Assembly (NCBI GenBank): GCA_028713005.1
Contig: JAQTPC010000004.1
Coordinates: 2,745 to 66,744 of the forward strand
Direction of reading: 5' to 3'
DNA: 64,000 nucleotides
Origin: Minisyncoccota bacterium
GTDB taxonomy: Bacteria; Patescibacteriota; Minisyncoccia; Phycocordibacterales; PALSA-1337
Part shown: piece after piece, positions 11,011 through 58,788 of the stretch
Layout of the letters: each line of letters begins with the position of its first letter
How positions within the stretch are numbered: position 1 is the first letter of the stretch
Program-made: the position numbers and the translations under genes
Notes under the pieces: model-generated
What the model was told of the DNA's origin: nothing
What the model saw: the letters and a program-made list of their open reading frames with translations, nothing else
The model's database searches: none

Positions 11011-11164
11011 TTATCTGTCTATCAACCCAACGCACGTGCGTTGGGTTTTTATTTTTACACGCAAGCCAATAATACATCTATTTGTCCGCCCTCCTGGATT
11101 CGTGTCTCCATCGACACGCTCCACTGAGCGCCAATGACCCCAGAGGGCTTTTAGTGATTGATTG

Positions 11165-11238
11165 TCCGCCCTCTTGGATTCGAACCAAGGACCCCAGAGG
11201 TATAAGCTCTGTGCTCTAACCAACTGAGCTAAGGGCGG
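11165..11238 (-). tRNA. tRNA-Ile-like with anticodon UAU (loop CUUAUAC)
   Basis: Reverse complement CCGCCCT-TA-GCTC-AGTTGGTTA-GAGC-A-CAGAG-CTTATAC-CTCTG-GGGTC-CTTGG-TTCGAAT-CCAAG-AGGGCGG-A forms a canonical cloverleaf. Confidence 0.7.
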
Positions 11239-14512: not shown

Positions 14513-14635
14513 GTGTGGTTATAATGTTCATAGTTTTTTGATGTAAATGTATCTAACTCCAAAATATAAATTACCACATGGAATGGTTATAGTCAATAAA
14601 AGAAAACACCGACTAAAGCCGGCTTTTTTAATGTG

Positions 14636-14999
14636 TGGAGATGGGCGGAATTGAACCGCCGTGCAATCGAAGTTCGTCGAGCGACTCTACGGTGATAGAA
14701 TCCTTTGAAGTTTAATGACTATGCTAACAAAGAAAACAAAGCACATAGTCACGATCTCATTGTTTCAGGAGATAGAGTGAGAAGCTCTATCTACCCTACA
14801 TCCAAGTTATTACGCCTTGCTTACTGTTAGGATCCCAGTGAGTAGACGGCCTCGTTAGACGAGAGCGAATTGAAAGTCTTTGACTCCAAAAAATGGAGAA
14901 ACAATAGATTTTGCAATTGGGTTTTCCAGCGGATTTACGAGTCACTGGTGCTCGCACCGCACGAACGAAAACTGTCGATTGTCGATGCCTTGCATCCCC
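14636..14999 (-). ncRNA. ssrA: tmRNA (SsrA)
   Basis: 5' GGGGATGCAAGGCATCGACAATCGACAG and 3' ...GGCGG-TTCAATT-CCGCC-CATCTCC-A. The acceptor stem GGGGAUG/CAUCUCC carries the G3:U70 alanine identity pair. It lies adjacent to smpB. The candidate tag frame GCA AAA ... GCU CUC GUC UAA runs from RNA nt 86. Confidence 0.8.
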
Positions 15000-15539: not shown

Positions 15540-15565
15540 AGTGGAAGTATAGTATACTTTTACCT

Positions 15566-18770: not shown

Positions 18771-18839
18771 TACTCAAATTATCCAATTACCAATGATGCA
18801 ATGATCAATAAAGGTCATTGCATCAATGATAATTGATCA

Positions 18840-20213
18840 TTAAACTGTATATTCTTTCATCCTCTCCGGCACTATTGCCTTCACATTGAGCTCGTCATTC
18901 AGACGCTGTGCGAGATGCATAGACGCTCCAGGTTCACCCATGACGACAAAAACTTCCTTGAGCTTATTTGTTCCCGTAGAAACAAACTCCACCAGATGAT
19001 CACCATCCTTATGAGCCGAGTAACCATACAGAGTTTCGATATGAGCCTTAACCTCGATCTTCTGACCGTGAATAGTGACCTTCTTTCCCCCATCAGCGAG
19101 CTCACGGCCGAGTGAACCTGACGCTTGATAGCCGACGAGAAGGATCGTACTCTTTGGATCAGTGAGAAAATGCTGTTCATGCCCGATGACACGTCCGCCA
19201 ACTGACATACCTGAACCTGCGAGGATGATTTTTGCACCATTCAAATGATCGATACCCTGAGACTCACGCTGTGACTCGACAAAAGTGAGATGCGGAAATG
19301 AAAAGACATCATCACCACCATTGATCTGCTTTTGAGCAGCTTCATTGAAAAACTCCGTACTTGCACGATATATAGCAGTAGCCTTCTCCCCCATCGGTGA
19401 GTCGAGAAATACGGGTACAGATGGAATCTTCTTATCTTTAACCAGATTATTTAATTCATACAAAAGTACCTGCGTACGATCTATAGAGAATGCGGGGATG
19501 ACGAGTGTACCACCACGTGCAAGAGTCTCAGTGATGACATGAGTGAATTCTTCCAAACGATTTTCACGAGTGTTGTGATTGCGATCGCCATAGACACTTT
19601 CCATGATGAGATAATCAACATCACCAACTGGCTCTGTATCACGGAGGAGCGGTGCTGGTGAATTGCCCAAATCACCAGTAAAAAGTATTTTCTTACCCTG
19701 ACCATTAGAATCTTTCACACTGAACTCAAACATGCTTGACCCAAGAATATGTCCTGCATCTTTGAGGAACACTGAAACACCTGGCGTCAGTTCAAACTTT
19801 TCATGATAGGCGATATTTTTCCAAAGTGGAAAGACCTGAGCAACATCATCGACGGTATAGAGTGGCTCAAGACCATTCTGTTCCGCTTCCATTGTGAGAA
19901 TATTGACCGCATCATTTAAAACAAGCAGAGCAAGCTCTTGCGTTTCAGGTGTTGAATAAATCACGCCCTTAAAGCCTTCTTTAACGAGCTTTGGGATACG
20001 TCCGACGTGATCGAGATGGGCATGCGTGATCATGAGAATATCGATCGATGAAGCCTCATAGCCAAATGGCTCGTAGTTCTGTTGTTGAGCCACTCTCTCT
20101 CCTTGGACCATACCACAATCAACGAGGATTCTTTTACCTCCAGCTTCAAAAAGAAAGTTTGCACCCGTTACTGTTCCTACGCCTGTGCAGAATGTGATTT
20201 TGTTTGGATTCAT
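18840..20213 (-). CDS. MBL-fold beta-CASP family ribonuclease/hydrolase
   Basis: HAHLDH metallo-beta-lactamase motif and the ILVDCG N-terminus. Its 457-aa length and C-terminal region are consistent with beta-CASP RNA-metabolising enzymes. Confidence 0.7.
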   Translation of the reverse strand: MNPNKITFCTGVGTVTGANFLFEAGGKRILVDCGMVQGERVAQQQNYEPFGYEASSIDILMITHAHLDHVGRIPKLVKEGFKGVIYSTPETQELALLVLNDAVNILTMEAEQNGLEPLYTVDDVAQVFPLWKNIAYHEKFELTPGVSVFLKDAGHILGSSMFEFSVKDSNGQGKKILFTGDLGNSPAPLLRDTEPVGDVDYLIMESVYGDRNHNTRENRLEEFTHVITETLARGGTLVIPAFSIDRTQVLLYELNNLVKDKKIPSVPVFLDSPMGEKATAIYRASTEFFNEAAQKQINGGDDVFSFPHLTFVESQRESQGIDHLNGAKIILAGSGMSVGGRVIGHEQHFLTDPKSTILLVGYQASGSLGRELADGGKKVTIHGQKIEVKAHIETLYGYSAHKDGDHLVEFVSTGTNKLKEVFVVMGEPGASMHLAQRLNDELNVKAIVPERMKEYTV

Positions 20214-20324
20214 ATAAACATTGTAAACGGTAAACAGTAATCGGTCTACCTGCGCAGACAGGTAAACAGAGCCATAAAGTAAAATACCTTCCCATCAGCA
20301 GATGAAAAGATATTTTACTAAGGA

Positions 20325-20450
20325 TTGCGAGAGTCAGACCTAGATATTCTAGGTGGGAGGTCTATCGCTGACATGCCTAAGCATAAGCGAATGCTAGCTT
20401 CAAGAGCCAATCGACTACCCGTTGAAAAGTTTAGGGTTTAACTCTCGCAA
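20325..20450. ncRNA. Candidate structured RNA element closed by perfect 10-bp helix (TTGCGAGAGT / ACTCTCGCAA)
   Basis: Seen in sequence. It lies within a 360-bp intergenic region. Internal hairpins include GACCTAGATATTCTAGGT and AGCAT-AAGCGA-ATGCT. The strand is undetermined. Confidence 0.25.
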
Positions 20451-20572
20451 CCTGAATTCATTGTATTCTTCTCACAGAGTAATGCAAGTGTGAATATTAT
20501 GTTACACCATTTACTTTGACAAAAAACAAAATAGATACTGCACTCGAGCTTTATTTACCTCGCTAAAATAAT

Positions 20573-21220
20573 TTACTCAAAAATACCGTCCATATGTGCA
20601 CTATACAAAACCTTTTCTTGTATAAGAATATAATCAATCAATTCGTCTTTTGAGAACCAGAGATCAATCTCTGAACGAGCTTCATCAACTGAACCAGATG
20701 AGTGGACGAGGTTACGGATCGAACGGTCCTCTGCATCAGAAAATTCATATGAATCAAGGACGAAATCGCCACGAATCGTACCGACATCTGAACTGAGTGG
20801 TTCAGTGCTACCTGTAATCTTGCGGACGATAGCAACTGCATGCAAACCCTGCCAAACCATAGCAATAACTGGCCCGGAAGTCATATATTTTGAGAGACGG
20901 TGAAGGATATGCTCACCCATTTTCACCGGATCATGAAATTTGATATTGAGCTTATGCGCTGTAGCATGAGCAATAAATTTTGCACCGGTTTTACTGACCC
21001 ACTCTGGATCGTTCATATAGTGCTTTTCTACAAGTTCTTTTGTCGGACGTACAAACTTGAGACCGACAAGCTTGAGACCGAGTCGCTCATAACGCTGGAC
21101 AACCTCTCCAATGAGCGTTCGCTGGATAGCATCTGGTTTTATAAGAACAAGAGTACGCTCGCGCTTGGGATGCATGTGATCGATTTTTGTATGTGTAGTC
21201 ATGAAGACATTGTAACGCAC
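20573..21220 (-). CDS. ndk: Nucleoside diphosphate kinase (with internal insertion and N-terminal extension)
   Basis: ERTLVLIKPDAIQRTLIGEV...NLVHSSGSVDEARSEIDLWF. The true start may be the internal Met (MHPKRE, about 21175). Confidence 0.8.
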   Translation of the reverse strand: MRYNVFMTTHTKIDHMHPKRERTLVLIKPDAIQRTLIGEVVQRYERLGLKLVGLKFVRPTKELVEKHYMNDPEWVSKTGAKFIAHATAHKLNIKFHDPVKMGEHILHRLSKYMTSGPVIAMVWQGLHAVAIVRKITGSTEPLSSDVGTIRGDFVLDSYEFSDAEDRSIRNLVHSSGSVDEARSEIDLWFSKDELIDYILIQEKVLYSAHMDGIFE

Positions 21221-22625: not shown

Positions 22626-22861
22626 ATGTATTAAATTAATTAGCCACAGTATAGCAGATGAGCTTCATTTACCTAAATCATACTCATTGACTGAAAAACT
22701 ACCCGTAGTGTATGCTTACGGTACAACAAAATAGTTATTCAGAGTGTGGCGAGAGAACTAGCTCAATGACCCACCAGCAACTCTTCGAAAGAAGTAAGTG
22801 CTCAATCTAGCCCGAAAGGGAAAGATGCTATATCTCGTATTAAAACGATATAAGAATAGTA

Positions 22862-22892
22862 TACGCTTTCCATTCGGAAGGCGTTTTGTTTT
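22862..22892 (+). terminator. Leader-embedded terminator/attenuator hairpin just upstream of the PLP-enzyme gene
   Basis: CGCTTTCC-ATTC-GGAAGGCG followed by TTTTGTTTT. Upstream hairpins with GAAA tetraloops are present. Confidence 0.4.
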
Positions 22893-24134
22893 ATGGTTCG
22901 AAGCCATATTTATTATGTAACATATATAACTATGTCTACAAAAACAAAAGACTCTTTTGAAAACAAGAGTCGGTTCGGGTTCGGAACATTAGCAATCCAT
23001 GCTGGCGAAACACCAGATGCAGAAACAGGTGCAGTTGCTCCAGTTATCGTCAGATCGAAAACCTTTGCCCAAAAACGTTTTGGCAAGGAGAGCGAATATC
23101 AGTATTCACGTGGTAAAAATCCCACGCGCGACAAGCTCATAGAGAAATTAGAAGCGCTCGAAGGTGGTGGTACCGCAACTGTATTCGGTTCAGGATTGGC
23201 AGCTGAGGCGGCATTCTTTCTCACTCTCTCCCCTGGTGATCATGTCCTTCTTTGTCAGGAGGTATATGGAGGAACATTTAGATTACTCGATGGCTTTCTT
23301 TCCCGTTTTGGTATTACTTACGATTTCGCTGATTTTTCTGCAGAAGAATCTATTTGGAAGGGCATAAAGCCAAATACCAAGTACCTCTTCGTAGAAACGC
23401 CGACCAATCCCTCTCTCCATATCATCGACCTTGCGCTTGTTGCGAAAGTATCAAAGAAAGCCTGTATACCGTTCGTTGTTGATGCCACATTCTCTCCTCC
23501 GTGCACCACCAAAGCATTTGAGTACGGCGCTGAGACCGTCATCCATAGTCTGAGCAAATATATCGCTGGACATAATGACATACTCGGCGGTGCTGTTATA
23601 ACGAAAAATACGAAATTAGCTGAGCGCATAAATTTTCTTCATCGAACGCTCGGAGCAGTTCTCTCTCCTGATGAGTGCTATCGGGTACTCCAAGGAGTGA
23701 AGACACTTGAGCTTCGTTGGAAGAGAGTAAGTGAAACGGCATTGACTGTCGCCCAATTCCTCAAAAAACAGAAAGTGATCACAAAGGTTTTTTATCCCGG
23801 CCTACTTTCACATGCTCAACATTCAATAGCTAAAAAACAACATCAAAATGGCTTCGGTGGCGTAGTTTCTTTTGAGCTACGCGAGCATAGTTTCAAAAAA
23901 CTAAAGAAATTTGTCGACACAGTTCGCGCCCATAGCCCTATCATCTATGGCGAAAGCCTCGCTAGTCCAGAAACAATCCTCGCATATCCTCCACTCATGA
24001 GCCATAAGAGTCTACCGAAAAATGTACGCGAATCACTTGGCATCACTGATGGATTCTTTCGGCTATCGGTTGGCTTTGAGGATGTAAAAGATATCTTGGA
24101 GGGATTGAGGAAAGGGCTTGCTGTACTTAATTAA
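22893..24134 (+). CDS. Cys/Met-metabolism PLP-dependent enzyme (cystathionine gamma-synthase / beta-lyase / methionine gamma-lyase family)
   Basis: HAGE..., YSRGKNPTRDKLIE, and the PLP-lysine motif HSLSKYIAGHNDILGG. The start may instead be ATG 22932. Confidence 0.8.
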   Translation: MVRSHIYYVTYITMSTKTKDSFENKSRFGFGTLAIHAGETPDAETGAVAPVIVRSKTFAQKRFGKESEYQYSRGKNPTRDKLIEKLEALEGGGTATVFGSGLAAEAAFFLTLSPGDHVLLCQEVYGGTFRLLDGFLSRFGITYDFADFSAEESIWKGIKPNTKYLFVETPTNPSLHIIDLALVAKVSKKACIPFVVDATFSPPCTTKAFEYGAETVIHSLSKYIAGHNDILGGAVITKNTKLAERINFLHRTLGAVLSPDECYRVLQGVKTLELRWKRVSETALTVAQFLKKQKVITKVFYPGLLSHAQHSIAKKQHQNGFGGVVSFELREHSFKKLKKFVDTVRAHSPIIYGESLASPETILAYPPLMSHKSLPKNVRESLGITDGFFRLSVGFEDVKDILEGLRKGLAVLN

Positions 24135-24165: not shown

Positions 24166-24200
24166 GACGCAAAAATCTCAAGGCTAAACCTTGAGATTTT
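24166..24200. terminator. Bidirectional terminator between convergent genes
   Basis: AAAATCTCAAGG-CTAAA-CCTTGAGATTTT. Confidence 0.5.
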
Positions 24201-24232
24201 CTGTTTACTATTTTCTGATTACTGTTTACTTC

Positions 24233-25504
24233 CTAGTACTCCCTCATACTTACCTGAGCATCGATCTTCTTGAGCAAATCAAGAACCACAGACACAACGA
24301 TCAAGAGAGATGTACCACCGATAGCGAGTGTCTGAACACCCGTGAGATGCTGCATCGTGAGTGGCAAGATAGCAACAACACCAAGGAAGACTGCACCGAC
24401 GAGAGTGATGCGAGTAACAATAGCTGCGAGATAGTCACGTGTATGGTCGCCAGGACGAACACCTGGGATGAATGCTCCACCCTGTTGGAGGTTCTGCGAG
24501 ATCATCGTTGGATCAAACGTAACTGCAGTATAGAAGTAGGTGAAGAGAACAACGAGGATAAAGTAGAAACTACCATAGACCCATGCATTGTTGAAGAATG
24601 TTGCAAATGATGAGGCATATGCTGCTACAACCGCATTTGAAGCGTGTGAGAGGAAGTTAGCGATAATCTGAGGAAACAAAAGGATAGAAAGGGCGAAGAT
24701 GATTGGGATAACACCTGCTTGGTTCAAGCGGAGTGGAAGATATGTTGAAACACCACCGTATACCTTATTGCCACGAACTTGCTTTGCATACGTAACTGGA
24801 ACTGAGCGTTCAGCCTCTGTAACAAAAACAACACCAGCGATAACGATAATAGCCACCGCAAGAACTGCAAGGTATACCGTGATCTGACTTGCATCGAATG
24901 TTGAAAGGAACTGGATTGTGCTCTTTGGCAAACTTGCAACGATACCTGCAAAAATAACAAGTGAAACGCCATTACCGATGCCGAACTCTGAGACGAGCTC
25001 ACCGATCCACATAAGGAGAATTGAACCAGCTGCAACCACAAGAACATTGATAGTAAGTTCAATACCTGTCACATGTGCGATGACATTTTGGTTTTCAAGA
25101 AGGATAATAAAACCGATAGCTTGGACGATAGCAAGTGGCACCGAAAGGAGACGTGAGTAGTTCGAGAGCTTCATGCGGCCAGCTTGTCCCTCTTCATGCA
25201 TGAGAGCCTTCCACTTTGGGAACATCATTGTGAGGAGTTGGATGATGATAGATGCAGTGATGAATGGTCCTACACCGAGCATAACAATAGAAAGGTTTGA
25301 AAGACCCCCACCTGAAAAGATGTTAAGAAAGCCAAAGAATTGACTTGATGAAAGAAGATTTGAAAGGTTAGCTACATCAACACCAGGAATTGGAATTGCA
25401 GCCAATAGACGAAATACGATAAGCGCACCAATAGTGAAGCCGATTCTCTTACGGAGAATTGGATCCTTGAGAGCTGTTGTGAATTTTTGCCAGAAGTTTT
25501 GCAT
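24233..25504 (-). CDS. secY: Preprotein translocase subunit SecY
   Basis: 10 TM helices, LRKRIGFTIGALIVFRL N-terminus, in the conserved position after rplO. Confidence 0.9.
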   Translation of the reverse strand: MQNFWQKFTTALKDPILRKRIGFTIGALIVFRLLAAIPIPGVDVANLSNLLSSSQFFGFLNIFSGGGLSNLSIVMLGVGPFITASIIIQLLTMMFPKWKALMHEEGQAGRMKLSNYSRLLSVPLAIVQAIGFIILLENQNVIAHVTGIELTINVLVVAAGSILLMWIGELVSEFGIGNGVSLVIFAGIVASLPKSTIQFLSTFDASQITVYLAVLAVAIIVIAGVVFVTEAERSVPVTYAKQVRGNKVYGGVSTYLPLRLNQAGVIPIIFALSILLFPQIIANFLSHASNAVVAAYASSFATFFNNAWVYGSFYFILVVLFTYFYTAVTFDPTMISQNLQQGGAFIPGVRPGDHTRDYLAAIVTRITLVGAVFLGVVAILPLTMQHLTGVQTLAIGGTSLLIVVSVVLDLLKKIDAQVSMREY

Positions 25505-29137: not shown

Positions 29138-30220
29138 TTAGATATTAGTACTATTTAACGATGACGACATTATCTTACATGAAGCTGTAGATCCATCGTC
29201 AAACGCAACACCATCTCCGCTCACGGCAGCACTGTCATAACAATAACTTGAGCCAGAAGAATTTAAAACTGCAGAGATAGCATACGTCTCTCCTTCCGCA
29301 TAACAGGTAACAACATTTTTATCTTTTAACTGAACAAATACTGAAGCAAATGATGCGTCCGCAAACATTCCTTGTGAACAGCTTCGAGTCTTTGAATATG
29401 TATTATTATCTCCATAATAAACTTCTGCTTGAGTTCTTAACTGACTAAGCACTGTTCTGACTTGAGCATCTTGTCCTTTTTGGCGAGCAGAACTCAGTGC
29501 AACAAGTACAACCGATGACATGATACCGAATATTGCAATCATTGGGAGAATGCAAGCGATGATAATACCTACGACTAGACCAGCAGTATGAGGTTTAGCT
29601 GGATCTTTATATATCACAACACTATGTGCGAACATATCATGCAATCCTTGTTTCTTTGCCGTAAATCCAGCAATAATAAAACCGATACAAAGAATAATTT
29701 GAGAAACAAACTTGCCAAGAGTTTCGCGTAACAAAACTTTACCGAATGAAAGTTTTTCAAAGCTATCTGACTTAACAGTAATACCAACCAGCATTTTTCC
29801 AAGGGTCGCGCCGGAATAATATGTCATCAAAGTGAAATATGTCCATGTCAGAAGCAATGAGACAACATAAGATAATGCCCCGGCAGTCTGTGTAGCAGAT
29901 CCTGGGTTTTTTATTAAAATCAATCCTAAAAGAAACTGCGTCATGGCAATCGGTATAGCAATAATCAAGCTATCAACCATGATCGCGACAAATCTAACCC
30001 AAAAACCAGCATATTTTACATTTACAGGAGGAGTTGGAACAGTACCTGTAGGTGCAACTGGATTGTGAGCTGGCTGATTGAGTTCGAGAGTTGCAAAAGC
30101 ATCATTTACATCGACAAGATTCCATCCACCAGCACTTACGAGATTTTGTTGTATAGACTCTTTTGTTAAACCTTGTGCTATCTGTTGTTTGACGTACTCA
30201 AGCAATTGCGTATTTGCCAT
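29138..30220 (-). CDS. Membrane protein: conserved N-terminal helical domain + RDD-family domain + C-terminal type IV pilin-like region
   Basis: The N-terminus is paralogous to the next gene. RDD core runs RFVAIMVDS...YYSGATLGKMLVGITV. The C-terminal hydrophobic helix is followed by SSARQKGQDAQVRTVLSQLRTQAEVYYGDNNTY (pilin-like) and a Cys pair. Confidence 0.5.
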   Translation of the reverse strand: MANTQLLEYVKQQIAQGLTKESIQQNLVSAGGWNLVDVNDAFATLELNQPAHNPVAPTGTVPTPPVNVKYAGFWVRFVAIMVDSLIIAIPIAMTQFLLGLILIKNPGSATQTAGALSYVVSLLLTWTYFTLMTYYSGATLGKMLVGITVKSDSFEKLSFGKVLLRETLGKFVSQIILCIGFIIAGFTAKKQGLHDMFAHSVVIYKDPAKPHTAGLVVGIIIACILPMIAIFGIMSSVVLVALSSARQKGQDAQVRTVLSQLRTQAEVYYGDNNTYSKTRSCSQGMFADASFASVFVQLKDKNVVTCYAEGETYAISAVLNSSGSSYCYDSAAVSGDGVAFDDGSTASCKIMSSSLNSTNI

Positions 30221-30264
30221 AAAAATATATTAAGACTTGTAATTAGTGCCCTGATAATAGCACA

Positions 30265-31467
30265 TTATTTAAATGTAAAACTTGAGACAATACTCTCAGC
30301 ATCCTTTATCAAACTTAAGCCTCTATCTAGACTTGATTTGAATACAACACTGTATAGTGTGCCTCCATGCACTGCACTATATTGTAATATAGCCTCTCTT
30401 GCCGACTGATCTGAACCTGTACTGCTAACTGTAAAGGCTATCACAACCGCCTTTTCACCACTCAATGTACTTGAACTTACTTTACCCAATACTGCACCTG
30501 CAAATTCTGATTTTATAATCGTATCTACATTTTCAGAAGTGATGATTTGGTCAACCGAATCGATCAGTCCGGATGTATCAGGTATAGGTGTTATAGCAAC
30601 ACACATGATATAGCCTGAAGCAGAACTCGAGGCTTGCACACCCTGTCCCCCATTTGAGGTTACACTTGGTTTCCAACCTCTAGGTAGAGTAAACGAGTAC
30701 AATGCATTATCAACAATGCTCGATTTAGATTTTAAAGGAGATACCTGGGTATTCACTACTGGCACTTGACTGGTCTTTTTTGTAAACCTATCAGTAACTG
30801 ATTGAACTAGGTTTGGTTGGAAAAAATAAACATATGCACCAGCGCCGACAAAAGCACATATAATAAACACGAAAATCAAAATAAGAATACCTGAACGACG
30901 TGGTGAAGATGATTGCTGCGGAACAACAAACGCTTTTGATGCCACAGTTTGTGGCATCGAAGAAAAGCTTGGTGGTGGAGTAAATGTTCGTGGTGGTGTT
31001 GGAATTGGACTTGTCTGATATTGTTGAGCAAATGTTGCAGGTGGTGGCTTGGGAAAGCTAGCAATCGGTTGACTTGTCTGAACAGGATTTGATGGATACT
31101 GTGATACGGATGATACTGGTGGTTTTGGTGTTGAGATAGGTGTAGGAGTAATCTTGATTTCAATAGGTGGTTTAGGTGCGATCGGAGGTGCAGTGAATTG
31201 TGGTTTTGGAGCTATAACTGGCGTTGATACGGGCACAGAAACTACTGGTATTACTGGGGCTGGAGTTGTGGGCACAAAAACTTTTGGACTTATTGTCGCT
31301 GTTGGCGTTTGACTAGTAACTACACTATGACCGAGTGCTATAAACGCCTCTTTGATATCAACTGCACTCCAACCACCTTCCGCAATAAGTTTTTGTTGTA
31401 CAGCTTCTGCACTCGAACCATGTGCCAGTTTATATGAAATGTAATCAAGTAATTGTTTATTTGTCAT
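30265..31467 (-). CDS. Single-pass membrane protein with same N-terminal domain, Pro-rich linker and extracellular C-terminal domain
   Basis: MTNKQLLDYISYKLAHGSSAEAVQQKLIAEGGWSAVDIKEAF is about 50% identical to the N-terminus of 29138..30220. It has a PT-rich spacer and a TM segment ILILIFVFIICAFVGAGAYVYFF. Confidence 0.45.
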   Translation of the reverse strand: MTNKQLLDYISYKLAHGSSAEAVQQKLIAEGGWSAVDIKEAFIALGHSVVTSQTPTATISPKVFVPTTPAPVIPVVSVPVSTPVIAPKPQFTAPPIAPKPPIEIKITPTPISTPKPPVSSVSQYPSNPVQTSQPIASFPKPPPATFAQQYQTSPIPTPPRTFTPPPSFSSMPQTVASKAFVVPQQSSSPRRSGILILIFVFIICAFVGAGAYVYFFQPNLVQSVTDRFTKKTSQVPVVNTQVSPLKSKSSIVDNALYSFTLPRGWKPSVTSNGGQGVQASSSASGYIMCVAITPIPDTSGLIDSVDQIITSENVDTIIKSEFAGAVLGKVSSSTLSGEKAVVIAFTVSSTGSDQSAREAILQYSAVHGGTLYSVVFKSSLDRGLSLIKDAESIVSSFTFK

Positions 31468-31533
31468 AGGAATATACTAAATATACACAAAGTATATCCT
31501 AGTACTGACACAATAACAGCTCCCACCTGTTGA

Positions 31534-33378
31534 TTACAGAAATAACCTCACCAACCTGATCTCCTCAAAGGTGAAACTACTGCCGAGGATATTTTTGACC
31601 GGCGAAAGTGCTCTACCACCCCCCTCTTGCATGCCCACTGCATGAAACGCCATAGAAATCTTTTTGAAACGTGTAACGGGGAGTGCATCACGAAGATGTG
31701 AAATATTCCATGTAGGATCTTCTCTTTTCTCATGTTCTATATGATTGAGGATAGTATCAAAAGATAGACCGCGCTCCGTTGCTACTTCACGGACAGATTT
31801 TCCCATGTCGATGAGGCTGCGAGTCACCTCTGCAGTAGGTATCTTTGGTTTTTTACCTTTTCTGGTTCGTTTAACCGCCTTTGCTCGATCTGCAAAATCT
31901 TCATCAGACTCACCGTCTTCTTTTGTCACCGGATCAGGGCCAAGGAATTTCTTTTGTCGAACATTGAGATCATCAGCTGATAACCCCATAAAATGGGCTT
32001 GGGCTTTTTTTGATTGTTCACGAAAGTGCTTATCGAATTCATATGCTTCCGGATGGATATGCAGGGCCATATCATTGAGTCCTGCCAAGGTAAGGCCGAG
32101 GAGCGACCGTACACGCGAGAGCGCTACATAACCCATACCCTTCTCAAAAGAACGTGACAGGTCGATATGTGCAGCGTCGAGAGACATGCCCTGACTCTTA
32201 TGGATGGTTATAGCCCATGCGAGGCGTAGAGGATACTGTTCAATCTCAGCCAACGTCCTATCTCCCTCATCGACACGCCAGCTTTCGAGTGGTACATCTA
32301 TCTCTCTACCATCAAGCGTTTTGACGACGATACTGTCATAGGTACATTCAGCGACAATGCCACGTGTGCCGTTGGCATATCCAACTTCCCAATTATTTTT
32401 TACAAACATGACTTGTGCGCCAACTTTAAGCCTGAGAACCTCAGGCGCCAAGCAAGATTTCTTTAAACCTTCAATGAGCTTTTTGTTCCCGTGTGAAATC
32501 ATCTTATACTCCAAGAATCCCCCAGGAACTGCATTGAGCTCGCGATCATTTTCGGCATCAACATCGCTATTGTGAGAATAGAGTCGTGTTGCTTTTATGT
32601 TTTCAGTTAAAATCGTAGGAATTTCAATAGGAATATCTGTTTCGCTTTTCTTTTTAACTTCATCTTCATCACCGATAAAGACCACGTCTTCTTCAGAACC
32701 CATGTGCTCATCAGTTAAAAACTCTATGCCATCATCCTCTTTTTTATTACGAGAAATAATACGGCCATTTAATAAGTCCATCATATCTGTTGAGAGCGAC
32801 TGGGCACGAATACCATTTAAAATTCCAACATACTCCTTGTCCAACTGACGATGTTGCTCTTCGAGATAACAGACAACAAAGTTAGCCTCCTTCCAAGCCT
32901 TTGAATGATACGCGAAATACGCATCAGGCTCGCCCCCACGAGATATTGGAGGCAATTGGAAAAAATCTCCACACACCACAACCTGTAAGCCTCCGAATGG
33001 CGCGTCTGACTTACGAATCTTCTTCACGATTTCATTTATGAGATCCAAACGAAAATGATGGAGCATGGATATCTCATCGATGATAAGAACTTTGGCCGCT
33101 TCTATCTTTGTCTTTACATAACTCTTTTCTGATATTTCCTCGAGATCTTGTTCTGAGAGAGTGTCGCGTACGCCGACACCAGACCATGAGTGGATCGTGA
33201 CGCCGCCCATATGGGTCGCTGCGATACCAGTAGAAGCTGTGATACCAACGGGTATTTCTCGTTCACGTAAGCACTGTAGATATTCTCGAAGAACATAGGT
33301 TTTGCCGCTGCCCGCTGGTCCGGTCAGAAAAACGTTCGCTCCTGTTTTGAGGATATTTAATGCTTCAGCTTGGGTCAT
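31534..33378 (-). CDS. Pif1/RecD-family 5'-3' DNA helicase with C-terminal HTH-like extension
   Basis: Walker A GPAGSGKTY, Walker B LIIDEISM, the GDFFQLPPI motif, and C-terminal ITIHKSQGMSLD...YVALSRV. Confidence 0.75.
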   Translation of the reverse strand: MTQAEALNILKTGANVFLTGPAGSGKTYVLREYLQCLREREIPVGITASTGIAATHMGGVTIHSWSGVGVRDTLSEQDLEEISEKSYVKTKIEAAKVLIIDEISMLHHFRLDLINEIVKKIRKSDAPFGGLQVVVCGDFFQLPPISRGGEPDAYFAYHSKAWKEANFVVCYLEEQHRQLDKEYVGILNGIRAQSLSTDMMDLLNGRIISRNKKEDDGIEFLTDEHMGSEEDVVFIGDEDEVKKKSETDIPIEIPTILTENIKATRLYSHNSDVDAENDRELNAVPGGFLEYKMISHGNKKLIEGLKKSCLAPEVLRLKVGAQVMFVKNNWEVGYANGTRGIVAECTYDSIVVKTLDGREIDVPLESWRVDEGDRTLAEIEQYPLRLAWAITIHKSQGMSLDAAHIDLSRSFEKGMGYVALSRVRSLLGLTLAGLNDMALHIHPEAYEFDKHFREQSKKAQAHFMGLSADDLNVRQKKFLGPDPVTKEDGESDEDFADRAKAVKRTRKGKKPKIPTAEVTRSLIDMGKSVREVATERGLSFDTILNHIEHEKREDPTWNISHLRDALPVTRFKKISMAFHAVGMQEGGGRALSPVKNILGSSFTFEEIRLVRLFL

Positions 33379-33437
33379 GGGTGCTAGTATATCACCTCAA
33401 ATAAAAAATCCCGACACAACCTGTGTCGGGAGCGATA

Positions 33438-34607
33438 CTAGCAATTCTTCCAAAGCGAGCTCAGGCTCGGATTGCGTGCCAACGAATAATTTGAATAATC
33501 GAGATCATCCGTCACATCTCGCGATTTTCCGAGAAAATCCGGAAGCGAGACTTGGTCGTTCGCATCCGTCAGCTCGATCTCGAGCATAACCAACCCTTGA
33601 TGTAGGCCTAAGAATACATCCAGCTCAAAATACTGATCTTTGTAAACAAAGGTTTTACGAGTCTTTGTGACAGGACAGCAGTCGGGCTTGGCGAATCTCA
33701 GCAACCGAGTGAACTCTGAAGCAGTAATGATGCTTTCAGTTTCATAACGCCCGAAACTACCAGAAAATCCTGGCAGCGTCTTTTTGATCGTCCGATAGCA
33801 CGTCGTTATCCCGCGCCAGGTGCGCATGCGGATTCGTTCATCCCCTTCTGGAGTCTTGATGTAATACTGAACGATTGAGACGTTCTCGTGAGGAACCGAA
33901 ATCAGAGGCTCATTTTTAAGATGGAACTTCCGTTCAATCTCAATCGGCACTGGGATACCGAGAATATGAGTGATCGCTGCAACAGACTTCCGCACCTTAG
34001 TCTGCAGGTCGATGAAACCACCGTTACCATCTGTATTACTGATAACGACGAGATGAGGATGATGGATCCACGAACGTAACGTCCTTTCATCAAGCTCTTT
34101 CGCTTCCTCGACTGTTTCTCGGCGAGCAATGTTATTGGCGCATGTGTAAAGATGTGGCGCATCATATGCCAAACTGCGCAGATAGATGACGCCCTTATAC
34201 GGAACTTCCCCAAGCAAAGCGGCATCATAGCCCAACTTTTCGGCCATTTTAAAGAATACATCGGGTGAGATATAAGCCGAACCATCGAGACGACCTCGAT
34301 CGGTCAATATAACCTTGTGTTTTGCCTTGATACACTTCATCGCTTGGTGGTAGCGATATTCGCGTTCGACGGAAGCGAGAAGTATCTGCGTTTGGAAATC
34401 TTCTGGTGAACCGAAATCACCGAAAGAAAGCCCGTGAGTCGCAAATTCAGTTGCGATCTCAGGAACAACACAGGCATGAACCCCTTTGTCTTGAAGATGA
34501 CGGGTAGACTGCGCTAAGACGGTTGATTTTCCAGCACAAGCGCCACCTGTTTCAGCAATTGTCGTAATGTCACTTAATGCTAATGGATGAACGATTTGGT
34601 TGAGCAT
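33438..34607 (-). CDS. Fusion protein: AAA_28/NadR-like P-loop nucleotide kinase domain + CYTH (triphosphate tunnel metalloenzyme) domain
   Basis: N-terminal P-loop ETGGACAGKST, with a C-terminal domain opening on the CYTH hallmark EIERKF (ExExK). Confidence 0.55.
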   Translation of the reverse strand: MLNQIVHPLALSDITTIAETGGACAGKSTVLAQSTRHLQDKGVHACVVPEIATEFATHGLSFGDFGSPEDFQTQILLASVEREYRYHQAMKCIKAKHKVILTDRGRLDGSAYISPDVFFKMAEKLGYDAALLGEVPYKGVIYLRSLAYDAPHLYTCANNIARRETVEEAKELDERTLRSWIHHPHLVVISNTDGNGGFIDLQTKVRKSVAAITHILGIPVPIEIERKFHLKNEPLISVPHENVSIVQYYIKTPEGDERIRMRTWRGITTCYRTIKKTLPGFSGSFGRYETESIITASEFTRLLRFAKPDCCPVTKTRKTFVYKDQYFELDVFLGLHQGLVMLEIELTDANDQVSLPDFLGKSRDVTDDLDYSNYSLARNPSLSSLWKNC

Positions 34608-41134: not shown

Positions 41135-41740
41135 TTAACCTACGATCTCCACTAATGTACCTCTCTTTCCTGGGATTGCTCCAGCAACATACATGACATT
41201 TTCGTCTGCGTCAATGTGAGCGACCTTGAGGTTCTTGACTGTAATACGATCACTTCCCATACGGCCTGCCATGCGCATACCGACTGGAACACGAGTACGG
41301 AGACCGCCACCGATAGAACCTGGTTCACGTTCTGAGTGCTTTTGACCGTGTGAACGTGGTCCACCACCGAAACCATGGCGCTTAACAACACCTTGGAAGC
41401 CTTTACCTTTTGAAATAGCTGATACCGTGATGACATCCCCTACTGCAAATTGTGAAAGCTCTACTTTGTCGCCAGTCTTAACTACTGGAGCATCAACACG
41501 AAACTCTGCAACTGCTGCAAAATTACCCATATCCTTGAACTGGCCTTTTTGAGCCTTATTGATGCGTCCTGGATTGCGTGTACCTTCACCAATCTGGACA
41601 GCCTCATAGCCATCTACGTCCTTTGTTCGGACTTGAGTGACGACATTACCGCGTACCGTGACGAGAGTCACTGGTATAACAGCGCCAGAAGCGTCATATA
41701 TCTGGGCCATATTCAGTTTTCTTCCTAGAATGAATTTCAT
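41135..41740 (-). CDS. rplC: 50S ribosomal protein L3
   Basis: Start trimmed to MKFILGRKLNM. Contains KGKGFQGVVKRHGFGGGPRSHG. Confidence 0.85.
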   Translation of the reverse strand: MKFILGRKLNMAQIYDASGAVIPVTLVTVRGNVVTQVRTKDVDGYEAVQIGEGTRNPGRINKAQKGQFKDMGNFAAVAEFRVDAPVVKTGDKVELSQFAVGDVITVSAISKGKGFQGVVKRHGFGGGPRSHGQKHSEREPGSIGGGLRTRVPVGMRMAGRMGSDRITVKNLKVAHIDADENVMYVAGAIPGKRGTLVEIVG

Positions 41741-41747
41741 GTCAGTA

Positions 41748-41830
41748 TAATTAGTAATCGGTAAACAGTAATTAGTAATCAGAAAGAAGTCCAGCTTCTG
41801 TTTACTGATTACTATTCTCTGTTTACTTTT
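41748..41830. repeat. Cluster of GTAAACAG / TAATCAG direct and inverted repeats between rpsJ and rplC
   Basis: taatcggtaaacagtaattagtaatcag...ctgtttactgattact...ctgtttact; copies of the same motif occur at 20222-20270 and 24201-24230. Confidence 0.5.
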
Positions 41831-41834
41831 CAAG

Positions 41835-42224
41835 CTACATCATCTTTACGTCTATATTGACTCCAGATGGTAGACTCAAGTTCGTTAGGGCTTCGATAAC
41901 TTTTGGATTTGGGTTGATAATATCTATGAGACGCTTGTGAACACGCATTTCGAACTGTTCACGACTGTTCTTGTCGATGAATGATGAACGGTTAACGGTG
42001 TACTTTTTGATCTCTGTTGGGAGAGGTACTGGACCGTTGACTGTTACGTCATATCTCGAAGCGATATCCATGATCTGACGAAGTGAAGCGTCGAGGATCT
42101 TGTGCTCATAGGCACGAACACGGATGCGAAGATGAGAGACTTCCCCTTCTGCCTTAACCTTCTTTGCGCGAGGCGCAGCCTTGGTTGCAGGAGATTTCTT
42201 TGTTGTTTCTTTAGCGGTAGTCAT
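41835..42224 (-). CDS. rpsJ: 30S ribosomal protein S10 with Lys/Ala-rich N-terminal extension
   Basis: LRIRVRAYEHKILDAS...HKRLIDI. Confidence 0.85.
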   Translation of the reverse strand: MTTAKETTKKSPATKAAPRAKKVKAEGEVSHLRIRVRAYEHKILDASLRQIMDIASRYDVTVNGPVPLPTEIKKYTVNRSSFIDKNSREQFEMRVHKRLIDIINPNPKVIEALTNLSLPSGVNIDVKMM

Positions 42225-56024: not shown

Positions 56025-56039
56025 CTAGGTCCGACCTAG
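56025..56039. repeat. 15-bp perfect palindrome CTAGGTCCGACCTAG (copy 1)
   Basis: Seen in sequence. It lies 4 bp upstream of the start codon of 55107..56021. Confidence 0.8.
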
Positions 56040-56112: not shown

Positions 56113-56127
56113 CTAGGTCCGACCTAG
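56113..56127. repeat. 15-bp perfect palindrome CTAGGTCCGACCTAG (copy 2)
   Basis: Seen in sequence. It lies 44 bp upstream of the sod start. Confidence 0.8.
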
Positions 56128-58773: not shown

Positions 58774-58788
58774 CTAGGTCCGACCTAG
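58774..58788. repeat. 15-bp perfect palindrome CTAGGTCCGACCTAG (copy 3)
   Basis: Seen in sequence. It overlaps the rnhA stop codon and lies 71 bp upstream of the comEC start. Confidence 0.8.

Follow-up and report, generated by a model that had tools for sequence, protein, structure and literature searches.

Heptanucleotide arrays at three intergenic loci

We describe tandem arrays of seven-nucleotide units (heptads) that lie at three intergenic loci in a 64,000-nucleotide stretch of a Paceibacteria metagenome-assembled genome (MAG; contig JAQTPC010000004.1); this whole stretch is referred to as the window. It carries a minus-strand ribosomal-protein/secY cluster in the order EF-Tu, S10, L3, L4 ... 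SecY, and past SecY come a convergent gene for an S-adenosylmethionine (SAM)-riboswitch/Cys-Met pyridoxal phosphate (PLP) enzyme and then adk, map, ndk and a gene for a beta-CASP metallo-hydrolase. The window also holds a transfer-messenger RNA (tmRNA), a tRNA-Ile(UAU) and the SAM riboswitch. An earlier reading made from the letters of the window (the sequence-only reading) had reported a recurrent motif before the beta-CASP gene, after secY and between rpsJ and rplC. Copies are present at the coordinates it gave for all three places, here called loci A, B and C, and protein annotation bears out beta-CASP, SecY, S10 and L3 as the neighbours. We corrected the start of rplC to the ATG at 41738-41740, which gives a protein of 201 amino acids (MKFILGRK...), as in a 100%-identical database protein (P0001); because rplC begins at ATG 41740, the rpsJ-rplC spacer measures 94 nt. 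The genes and array features concerned are as follows.

18840-20213, minus strand: beta-CASP gene, with its ATG at 20211-20213
20220-20248, minus strand: predicted sigma-70-type promoter TAGACC-17-TACAAT, overlapping the heptad array of locus A
20223-20243, minus strand: locus A before-start array, plus-strand sequence GTAAACG GTAAACA GTAATCG, from heptad scoring
20244-20269, minus strand: degenerate unit GTCTACC and lone unit GTAAACAG (20262), from the fold of 20205-20330
24172-24200, no single strand: bidirectional intrinsic terminator hairpin AAAATCTCAAGG-CTAAA-CCTTGAGATTTT, from fold and terminator scan
24201-24229, minus strand: locus B after-stop array, from heptad scoring
24233-25504, minus strand: SecY gene, stop codon 24233-24235
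41754-41781, minus strand: locus C before-start (proximal) array, 3' arm of the hairpin, from heptad scoring, inverted repeat and fold
41754-41826, minus strand: predicted intercistronic hairpin of both locus C arrays, central stem-loop GAAGCTGGACTTC at about 41786-41798
41799-41826, minus strand: locus C after-stop (distal) array, 5' arm of the hairpin, from heptad scoring, inverted repeat and fold
41835-42224, minus strand: S10 (rpsJ) gene, stop codon 41835-41837

The recurrence of the motif is real and not a matter of chance. The 8-mer GTAAACAG has 7 matches in the window, counting both strands, every one of them inside the three intergenic loci, against a shuffle expectation of 1.75 (sd 1.18, maximum 5), and none of 100 shuffles reached 7. 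The two-unit pattern GTAAWCRGTAAWCR matched 5 times where 0.02 matches were expected. The sequence-only reading had counted at least seven occurrences in three places, a count that holds for the 8-mer with its partial copies and fails for the 13-mer GTAAACAGTAATC, of which the window has two exact copies only (20230, plus strand; 24217, minus strand) and a one-mismatch copy at 41761 on the plus strand. Within the window the motif does not behave as a ubiquitous k-mer lacking positional bias: the loci are 4 kb and 17.5 kb apart and no copy lies in coding sequence. Heptad scoring brought out a property absent from the sequence-only reading, namely that the copies stand in 7-bp register, forming four arrays of 3-4 units each with the consensus GTAA[A/T]C[A/G]. 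Written on one strand the unit is CAGTAAW and on the opposite strand WTTACTG. In a scan of the window, three-heptad scores of at least 17/21 were confined to the same three loci, and Tandem Repeats Finder returned a period of 7 for 20223-20245 and for 41748-41782, and one of 14 for 24196-24227.

Locus C occupies the rpsJ-rplC spacer. In mRNA sense, the distal array GTAAACA GAGAATA GTAATCA GTAAACA starts 8 nt past the rpsJ stop codon, and the proximal array TGATTAC TAATTAC TGTTTAC CGATTAC ends 13 nt upstream of the rplC ATG. The copies form an inverted repeat, as the sequence-only reading had stated, and are predicted to fold into a stable hairpin of -26.8 kcal/mol (z = -4.55), a stability reached by 0 of 200 shuffles. 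Rfam 15 gave nothing at the gathering score at any of the three loci and nothing at E <= 1 in 41650-41900 and 20150-20650, and scans of the rpsJ-rplC spacer with sigma-70 and terminator consensus patterns found 0 promoter-like and 0 terminator-like sites. As the spacer has no terminator, promoter or Rfam match, it is probably transcribed through. The hairpin fails the terminator scan because its stem is AT-rich and lacks a U-tract; we therefore rejected a Rho-independent terminator, which needs a GC-rich stem and a U-tract.

At locus B, the array reads GTAAACA GTAATCA GAAAATA GTAAACA G in the sense of the secY mRNA and starts 3 nt past the secY stop codon. It sits between this stop and a separate terminator hairpin at 24172-24200, which it adjoins without overlapping. 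That hairpin is canonical and serves both secY and the convergent SAM-riboswitch/Cys-Met PLP enzyme gene.

At locus A, three perfect heptads (CGATTAC TGTTTAC CGTTTAC in gene sense) end 9 nt 5' of the beta-CASP ATG. The adjoining segment 20244-20269 is predicted to fold into a small local hairpin, in gene sense GTTTACCTG tctgcg CAGGTAGAC; compared with a relative, L305, from which the segment is missing, it looks like an 18-nt insertion (CTGTCTGCGCAGGTAGAC) within the array. This and other relatives (Paceibacteria) were retrieved via their L3 and SecY proteins. The -10 box of the predicted promoter ends exactly 6 nt before the beta-CASP ATG, a leaderless-type geometry, and the same -10-N6-ATG spacing is kept in L003 (TATAAT-ATCCCC-ATG), L305 (TTTACC-17-TACAAT-6-ATG) and L306/L307 (TATAAT-ATGCAC-ATG). 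Because this geometry is conserved across four lineages, it suggests that the beta-CASP mRNA is leaderless. Hexamers resembling a -10 box (TACAAT, TATACT) also lie exactly 6 nt before the ATG at several genes of the window (beta-CASP, 20220-20225; ndk, 21209-21214; smpB, about 15545-15550), and judging from this spacing leaderless mRNAs seem to be common in the clade.

Orientation, start regions and turnover in relatives

The arrays are oriented with respect to their neighbouring genes. In mRNA sense, (CAGUAAW)n stands directly after stops (secY, rpsJ) and (WUUACUG)n directly before starts (beta-CASP, rplC), a rule obeyed by four of the four arrays in the window. A scan of viral contigs with three units yielded 98 stretches. 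The array-rich phage contigs have about 60% GC and carry head-tail connector, head completion and tail genes; they are the following.

L007, L009, L013, L015, L023, L029, L034, L041
L069, L074, L075, L082, L090, L093, L102

Arrays of 3-11 units (CAGTAAT, CAGTAAA, CAGTGAT and the like) lie in nearly every intergenic region of these contigs, at about 5-9 heptads per kb. After stops, 99 were in the CAGTAAT sense and 19 in the other; before starts, 64 were in the ATTACTG sense against 16, and 9 lay in coding sequence. The phage contigs had no megablast match and none in the GenBank phage collection, and their capsid-like protein had distant matches only. An origin of the contigs in Nostocales is improbable, given a GC content of about 60% and the lack of HIP1 palindromes.

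A three-heptad scan of genome contigs found at least 120 loci. Those listed come from Cyanobacteria (Microcystis, Spirulina, Microcoleus, Planktothrix, Nostocaceae), Chloroflexota, Bacteroidota, Acidobacteriota, Gemmatimonadota, Verrucomicrobiota, some Gammaproteobacteria and one Saccharibacteria. Among the 120 independent genome loci listed, arrays within 60 nt of a gene end follow the window's orientation by 59 to 8 after stops and by 26 to 10 before starts, and most of the before-start arrays listed end 2-13 nt from the start codon. Open reading frame (ORF) calling cannot produce such an orientation bias, since stops are present in all three frames whichever way an array points.

The before-start units resemble what precedes genes in this clade generally. 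For 225 starts of the window and eight relatives, with the heptad loci excluded, we surveyed the preceding 20 nt and found TACT 88 times against 19 for its complement AGTA, ACTG 20 times against 6 for CAGT, and TACC 30 times against 4. GGAGG-like sites are rare in the clade, and a typical start region reads ...TAATTTACTACT ATG, which suggests a non-Shine-Dalgarno initiation signal in these Paceibacteria. On the strength of this signature, the before-start heptads (TTACTGT, TTACCGA, TTACTAA) are tandem copies of the native start-region motif, and the after-stop heptads are its complement, which is otherwise avoided near starts.

Comparison with relatives revealed how quickly the arrays change. 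The window and L001 are 90-92% identical over 3.5 kb, and around the rpsJ-rplC spacer about 100 nt on each side are some 97-98% identical, yet the core of about 75 nt between them cannot be aligned. The replacement cores again consist of short, mostly 7-nt units plus their complements: the purine-rich GGAARAR in L001/L002 and L308, CAAGTNN/NNACTTG in L303 and L304, GTAAW.../TTACTGA in L224 and L225, TAGCTNN in L227, TAGCTTG in L264 and TACGAAT in L255. Although unrelated in sequence, the spacers of L001, L303, L304, L308, L225 and L227 are all predicted to fold into a hairpin at the same place, and the hairpin of each long allele extends from a few nucleotides past the rpsJ stop to 13-25 nt short of the rplC ATG. 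The secY 3' end of L003/L004 likewise carries another period-7 array (GGAGAAA GGAGAAG GAAGAAC GGAGAAA GGAAATC). A repeat search for further copies of the L001 spacer motif in its 20 kb gave nothing convincing, and inspection by eye of the replacement boundaries between the window and L001 showed no target duplication and no terminal inverted repeats. A metagenome search with L3 returned, among the matches listed, mostly distant relatives (45-80% identity). Across these genomes the structure and the 7-nt construction thus recur, while the sequence turns over fast and the element is dispensable.

The sequence-only reading had offered a leader RNA structure as one explanation; this has support at rpsJ-rplC alone, where a hairpin is kept in six relatives with replaced sequence. 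It had also called the rpsJ-rplC spacer an atypical place for a regulatory structure in the S10 operon. The place is not that atypical: long structured spacers occur there in many Patescibacteria, and TAACTGA repeats stand before L3 in Ca. Maribeggiatoa (PMC4679880). An autoregulatory site of the L4 or L3 type was rejected, as the ribosomal proteins are 90-98% identical across the relatives and the hairpin sequences are unrelated.

Relation to known repeats and possible function

The closest described system is that of the TAACTGA repeats of marine Beggiatoaceae, which are found also in Cyanobacteria and Bacteroidetes (MacGregor 2015, PMC4679880). Ca. Maribeggiatoa has 169 TAACTGA sets of 2-6 copies, mostly forward and lying a few nucleotides 5' of starts without a Shine-Dalgarno site; the genes so preceded include those for L3, S1, S4 and fusA, and a role in translation has been proposed, with S1, Csp or CsrA (PMC4679880). 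The arrays described here are likewise contiguous 7-nt units, intergenic, dispersed as sets, phylogenetically scattered and present in ribosomal-protein operons upstream of L3, and two of the four are forward and lie 9 and 13 nt before the beta-CASP and rplC ATG with no GGAGG-like site. In contrast, TAACTGA differs by one or two bases from the units here (TTACTGT, TTACCGA, TTACTAA and TTACCGT), with a single base separating it from the forms TTACTGA and TTACTGT, and strict membership of the TAACTGA family fails because the unit sequence differs; a unit that is exactly TAACTGA turned up in the phage arrays alone, as the minor variant CAGTTAT. The host here is a Paceibacteria MAG with three loci in 64 kb. 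Half of the arrays are reversed and directly follow stops, and one locus combines the orientations as a hairpin, whereas BOGUAY has a single indirect repeat among 170 TAACTGA sets (PMC4679880). The after-stop arrays and the combined hairpin lie outside the TAACTGA description.

The cyanobacterial short tandemly repeated repetitive (STRR) sequences are the next closest system. The STRR heptanucleotides CCCCAGT, TTGGTCA and CAACAGT are said to have been described by Mazel and colleagues in 1990 from heterocystous cyanobacteria. Like the STRR, the repeats here are non-coding tandem heptanucleotides with several unit families per genome and lineage-specific units, and a CAGT core is common to them and to STRR1 and STRR3; the taxon, units and array lengths differ, and they are not STRR in the strict sense. 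To our knowledge, neither a strand polarity at stops and starts nor an intercistronic hairpin has been described for STRR. STRR have served for fingerprinting (PMC5088731), and heptamer repeats of the same general kind occur near start codons and promoters in Nostoc (bioRxiv 10.1101/2022.06.06.494920). All the features of the broad class of intergenic tandem heptanucleotide repeats were found in the window (7-bp register, at least 2-3 head-to-tail units, non-coding position, dispersed sets). Heptanucleotides are the commonest long simple repeats in prokaryotes, according to the account of Mrazek (2007) cited in PMC4679880. In the literature library searched, we found no report of heptamer repeats in Patescibacteria.

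Other short repeats are less similar. Heptanucleotide repeats upstream of hmw1A and hmw2A in H. influenzae are phase-variable, with RNA structure and RNase III involved (PMC8262952, PMC12721329). Such phase-variable repeats are long and perfect with a hypermutable copy number, in contrast to the 3-4 imperfect units flanking housekeeping genes here, for which slippage should accordingly be rare. The sequence-only reading had also proposed a miniature repeat element, and came closest with this option insofar as the element is a repeat; it is a tandem heptanucleotide array with varying unit numbers and not a unit of the miniature inverted-repeat transposable element (MITE) or repetitive extragenic palindromic (REP) kind. 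Resemblance to REP, bacterial interspersed mosaic elements (BIME) and MITE lies in short, dispersed, intergenic copies, often within operons or after stops, and in possible mRNA hairpins; unlike these, the arrays have an internal tandem 7-mer, no fixed GTAG-head unit and no terminal inverted repeats with target duplication. REP/BIME, REP-associated tyrosine transposase (RAYT) elements and MITE were rejected because unit number and order differ among the loci and no RAYT or transposase is found among the annotated neighbours. We also rejected DNA uptake sequences, which occur at about 1 per kb and also in genes, as against three loci in 64 kb with none coding, and integron attC sites, whose defining features are missing.

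We are highly confident that the repeats belong, as tandem heptanucleotide arrays, to the STRR/TAACTGA kind, that they are polar relative to their neighbouring genes and that they evolve fast, and we infer with moderate confidence that they act at the RNA level. Our preferred reading, to which we give a probability of about 0.5, is a post-transcriptional intercistronic module for Shine-Dalgarno-poor genes, composed of a start-region motif and its complement. The before-start heptads would repeat the native pyrimidine-rich UACU/UUAC motif and so provide a ribosome loading or standby site, and the after-stop heptads, being its complement, would amount to an 'anti-start-region' sequence. Between rpsJ and rplC, the distal complement would sequester the loading site of the proximal array; ribosomes that terminate at the end of rpsJ would open the stem at its base and thereby tie the translation of L3 and of the genes behind it to that of S10. 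A further effect of the hairpin could be to buffer mRNA processing, decay or stability. The arrays may have arisen by slippage and inter-locus homogenisation, or by insertion. Their fast turnover points to a modulatory, dispensable element and not to a conserved protein-binding site.

Several observations weigh against this module. The rpsJ-rplC spacers of L309 and L223 are 19-23 nt long and contain neither array nor hairpin; before beta-CASP, an array of the CAGTAAW family recurs in L305 and is missing from L003 and L306. Absence from these relatives implies that the element is dispensable. If the predicted promoter at locus A is in use, the array there falls outside the mRNA, which would favour a DNA-level or promoter role at that locus; a position in the promoter, outside the mRNA, is indeed the more probable. 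The array of locus B lacks a complementary partner in its neighbourhood. When sense and antisense were compared by folding energy and G-U counts, the folding energies had no consistent bias, so that RNA and DNA structure are indistinguishable on this measure. As for the surveys, the phage contigs are partly redundant with one another, start codons were called mechanically, and the short distances from arrays to starts are partly forced by the method because the arrays carry stops in all frames in both orientations.

The same facts can be read as those of a neutral or selfish repeat, either a by-product of slippage or a tiny mobile or gene-converting sequence without function that is tolerated outside coding sequence; tolerable sites would then lie just outside genes, where arrays supply stops in every frame. 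We regard this as possible, if rather unlikely. It would account for presence or absence and wholesale replacement among relatives, for the GGAGAAR type at the secY 3' end of L003 that is found also between rpsJ and rplC of L308 and L001, for the recurrence of the CAAGT type in L303 and L304, and for a scattered phylogenetic distribution that includes phages. It would also fit the abundance of heptanucleotides among long simple sequence repeats in prokaryotes (as reported from Mrazek 2007 in PMC4679880) and the overlap with the stop codon of many after-stop arrays (distances -11 or -4, among the loci listed). However, mere tolerance does not predict that the orientation flips, given that both orientations carry stops in three frames, and it leaves unexplained the hairpin in every long rpsJ-rplC allele and the match of the before-start units to the start-region signature of the clade; nor was a transposase, target duplication or terminal repeat seen.

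The overlap of locus A with the -35 box, spacer and -10 box of a predicted and evolutionarily conserved leaderless promoter lends itself to another explanation, in which a dimeric heptad-reading protein co-regulates the beta-CASP RNase, the rplC operon and the secY region from DNA operator arrays. The model here is the omega repressor of plasmid pSM19035, a ribbon-helix-helix dimer that binds WATCACW heptads. As in omega operators, the 7-bp units are contiguous and both direct and inverted, and a 21-bp spacing would put units on one face of the helix; heptamer repeats moreover influence the action of LexA and NtcA at a Nostoc promoter (bioRxiv 10.1101/2022.06.06.494920). The resemblance is formal only. 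One array overlaps a predicted promoter and three do not; two of the four lie 3-8 nt past stop codons where no promoter is predicted, and the sequence is not conserved among relatives. Sites are swapped or absent despite 90-92% regional and about 97-98% flank identity, so that protein and sites would have to change together, and a strand polarity at stops and starts across phyla would be unexpected. No heptad-binding regulator was identified among the ten flanking proteins scanned in the window, which is only part of the genome, and the screen did not extend systematically to small ORFs. The sequence-only reading's proposal of an operator for an unidentified regulator hence fares poorly, as the orientation also tracks transcription, and we consider it improbable. 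Very improbable, in our view, is that the rpsJ-rplC hairpin ends or attenuates the tuf-rpsJ transcript, or is cut by RNase III, with rplC on a leaderless transcript of its own. A stable hairpin directly after rpsJ, the TAnnnT-like hexamers that precede the rplC ATG by 6 nt in the window, L001 and L304, and the predicted leaderless-type promoters common in the genome (e.g., ndk, beta-CASP, smpB) would agree with it. The stem, though, is AT-rich without a U-tract, the spacer has no sigma-70-like promoter, canonical terminators with GC stem and U-tract are used elsewhere in the genome, and loci A and B contain no heptad hairpin. The arrays are not an intrinsic terminator and probably not a conserved operator.

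Whichever explanation applies, heptamer repeats occur in Patescibacteria, and do so inside the core ribosomal-protein/secY cluster. Their orientation provides a testable rule, one strand after stops and its complement before starts, that extends to phages and several phyla, and the units found before starts are copies of a Shine-Dalgarno-independent motif native to the clade's start regions. Should the rule be functional, it would mean RNA-level coordination of the translation of neighbouring genes in organisms without Shine-Dalgarno pairing; if it is not, the spacer still shows clearly how very fast an intergenic hairpin can turn over between genes that are themselves highly conserved. Fast turnover would be useful for strain typing and calls for caution in regulatory-motif discovery. 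It is tempting to speculate, though we think it doubtful, that there is a cross-phylum, strand-polar 'heptad code' in which (CAGUAAW)n marks cistron ends and (WUUACUG)n Shine-Dalgarno-independent starts, a modular device that couples or gates translation, has spread horizontally, phages included, and is perhaps read by S1 or a cold-shock-domain protein. Under such a code, the STRR and TAACTGA repeats, long unexplained, would have a function.

Other features of the window and its relatives

Between the ndk and beta-CASP genes lies a candidate conserved structured small RNA of about 200 nt (20272-20492, minus strand). It has its own predicted promoter TTGTCA-17-TAATAT (20522 to 20494) and a terminator hairpin at 20278-20319, and a long closing stem pairs TTGCGAGAGT with ACTCTCGCAA. 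In an alignment with L003 and L305, 10 of 70 predicted pairs show compensatory changes; a search of Rfam with this RNA gave 0 matches even at E <= 1. Directly 3' of the beta-CASP stop, an AT-rich hairpin CAATTACCAATGATGCAATGA / TCATTGCATCAATGATAATTG at 18784-18835 is made of CAATGAT-like units of 7-8 nt and may represent a further family of short repeats; the complement of STRR2, cyclically permuted, gives CCAATGA.

The ribosomal-protein/secY cluster is broken by non-ribosomal genes that differ among close relatives (window 29138-34607 and 22732-24134, compared with L001 12873-16174, L003 1905-6956, L305 and L306). Inserted genes include a PIF1-type helicase, an aminotransferase with an ornithine/diaminopimelate decarboxylase, a Mur ligase and a PemK toxin. 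Between secY and adk, the window and L003 have the SAM-riboswitch/Cys-Met PLP enzyme gene, which is not at that place in L305 and L306. In L306, whose SecY is 89% identical, a bAvd-like gene stands beside a reverse-transcriptase fragment (19052-19828), a hallmark of diversity-generating retroelements, about 8 kb downstream of secY.

The tRNA-Ile at 11164-11238 has the anticodon UAU, which is unusual among bacteria, and the tmRNA at 14635-14999 encodes an atypical tag peptide, AKSIVSPFFGVKDFQFALV. Finally, a perfect 15-bp palindrome, CTAGGTCCGACCTAG, has three intergenic copies in the window (56025-56039, 56113-56127 and 58774-58788), and a one-base variant, CTAGGTCGGACCTAG, adjoins the Cys/Met PLP enzyme gene in L003 (11367-11381). 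The palindrome bears no relation to the heptads and resembles a classical operator for a dimeric transcription factor.

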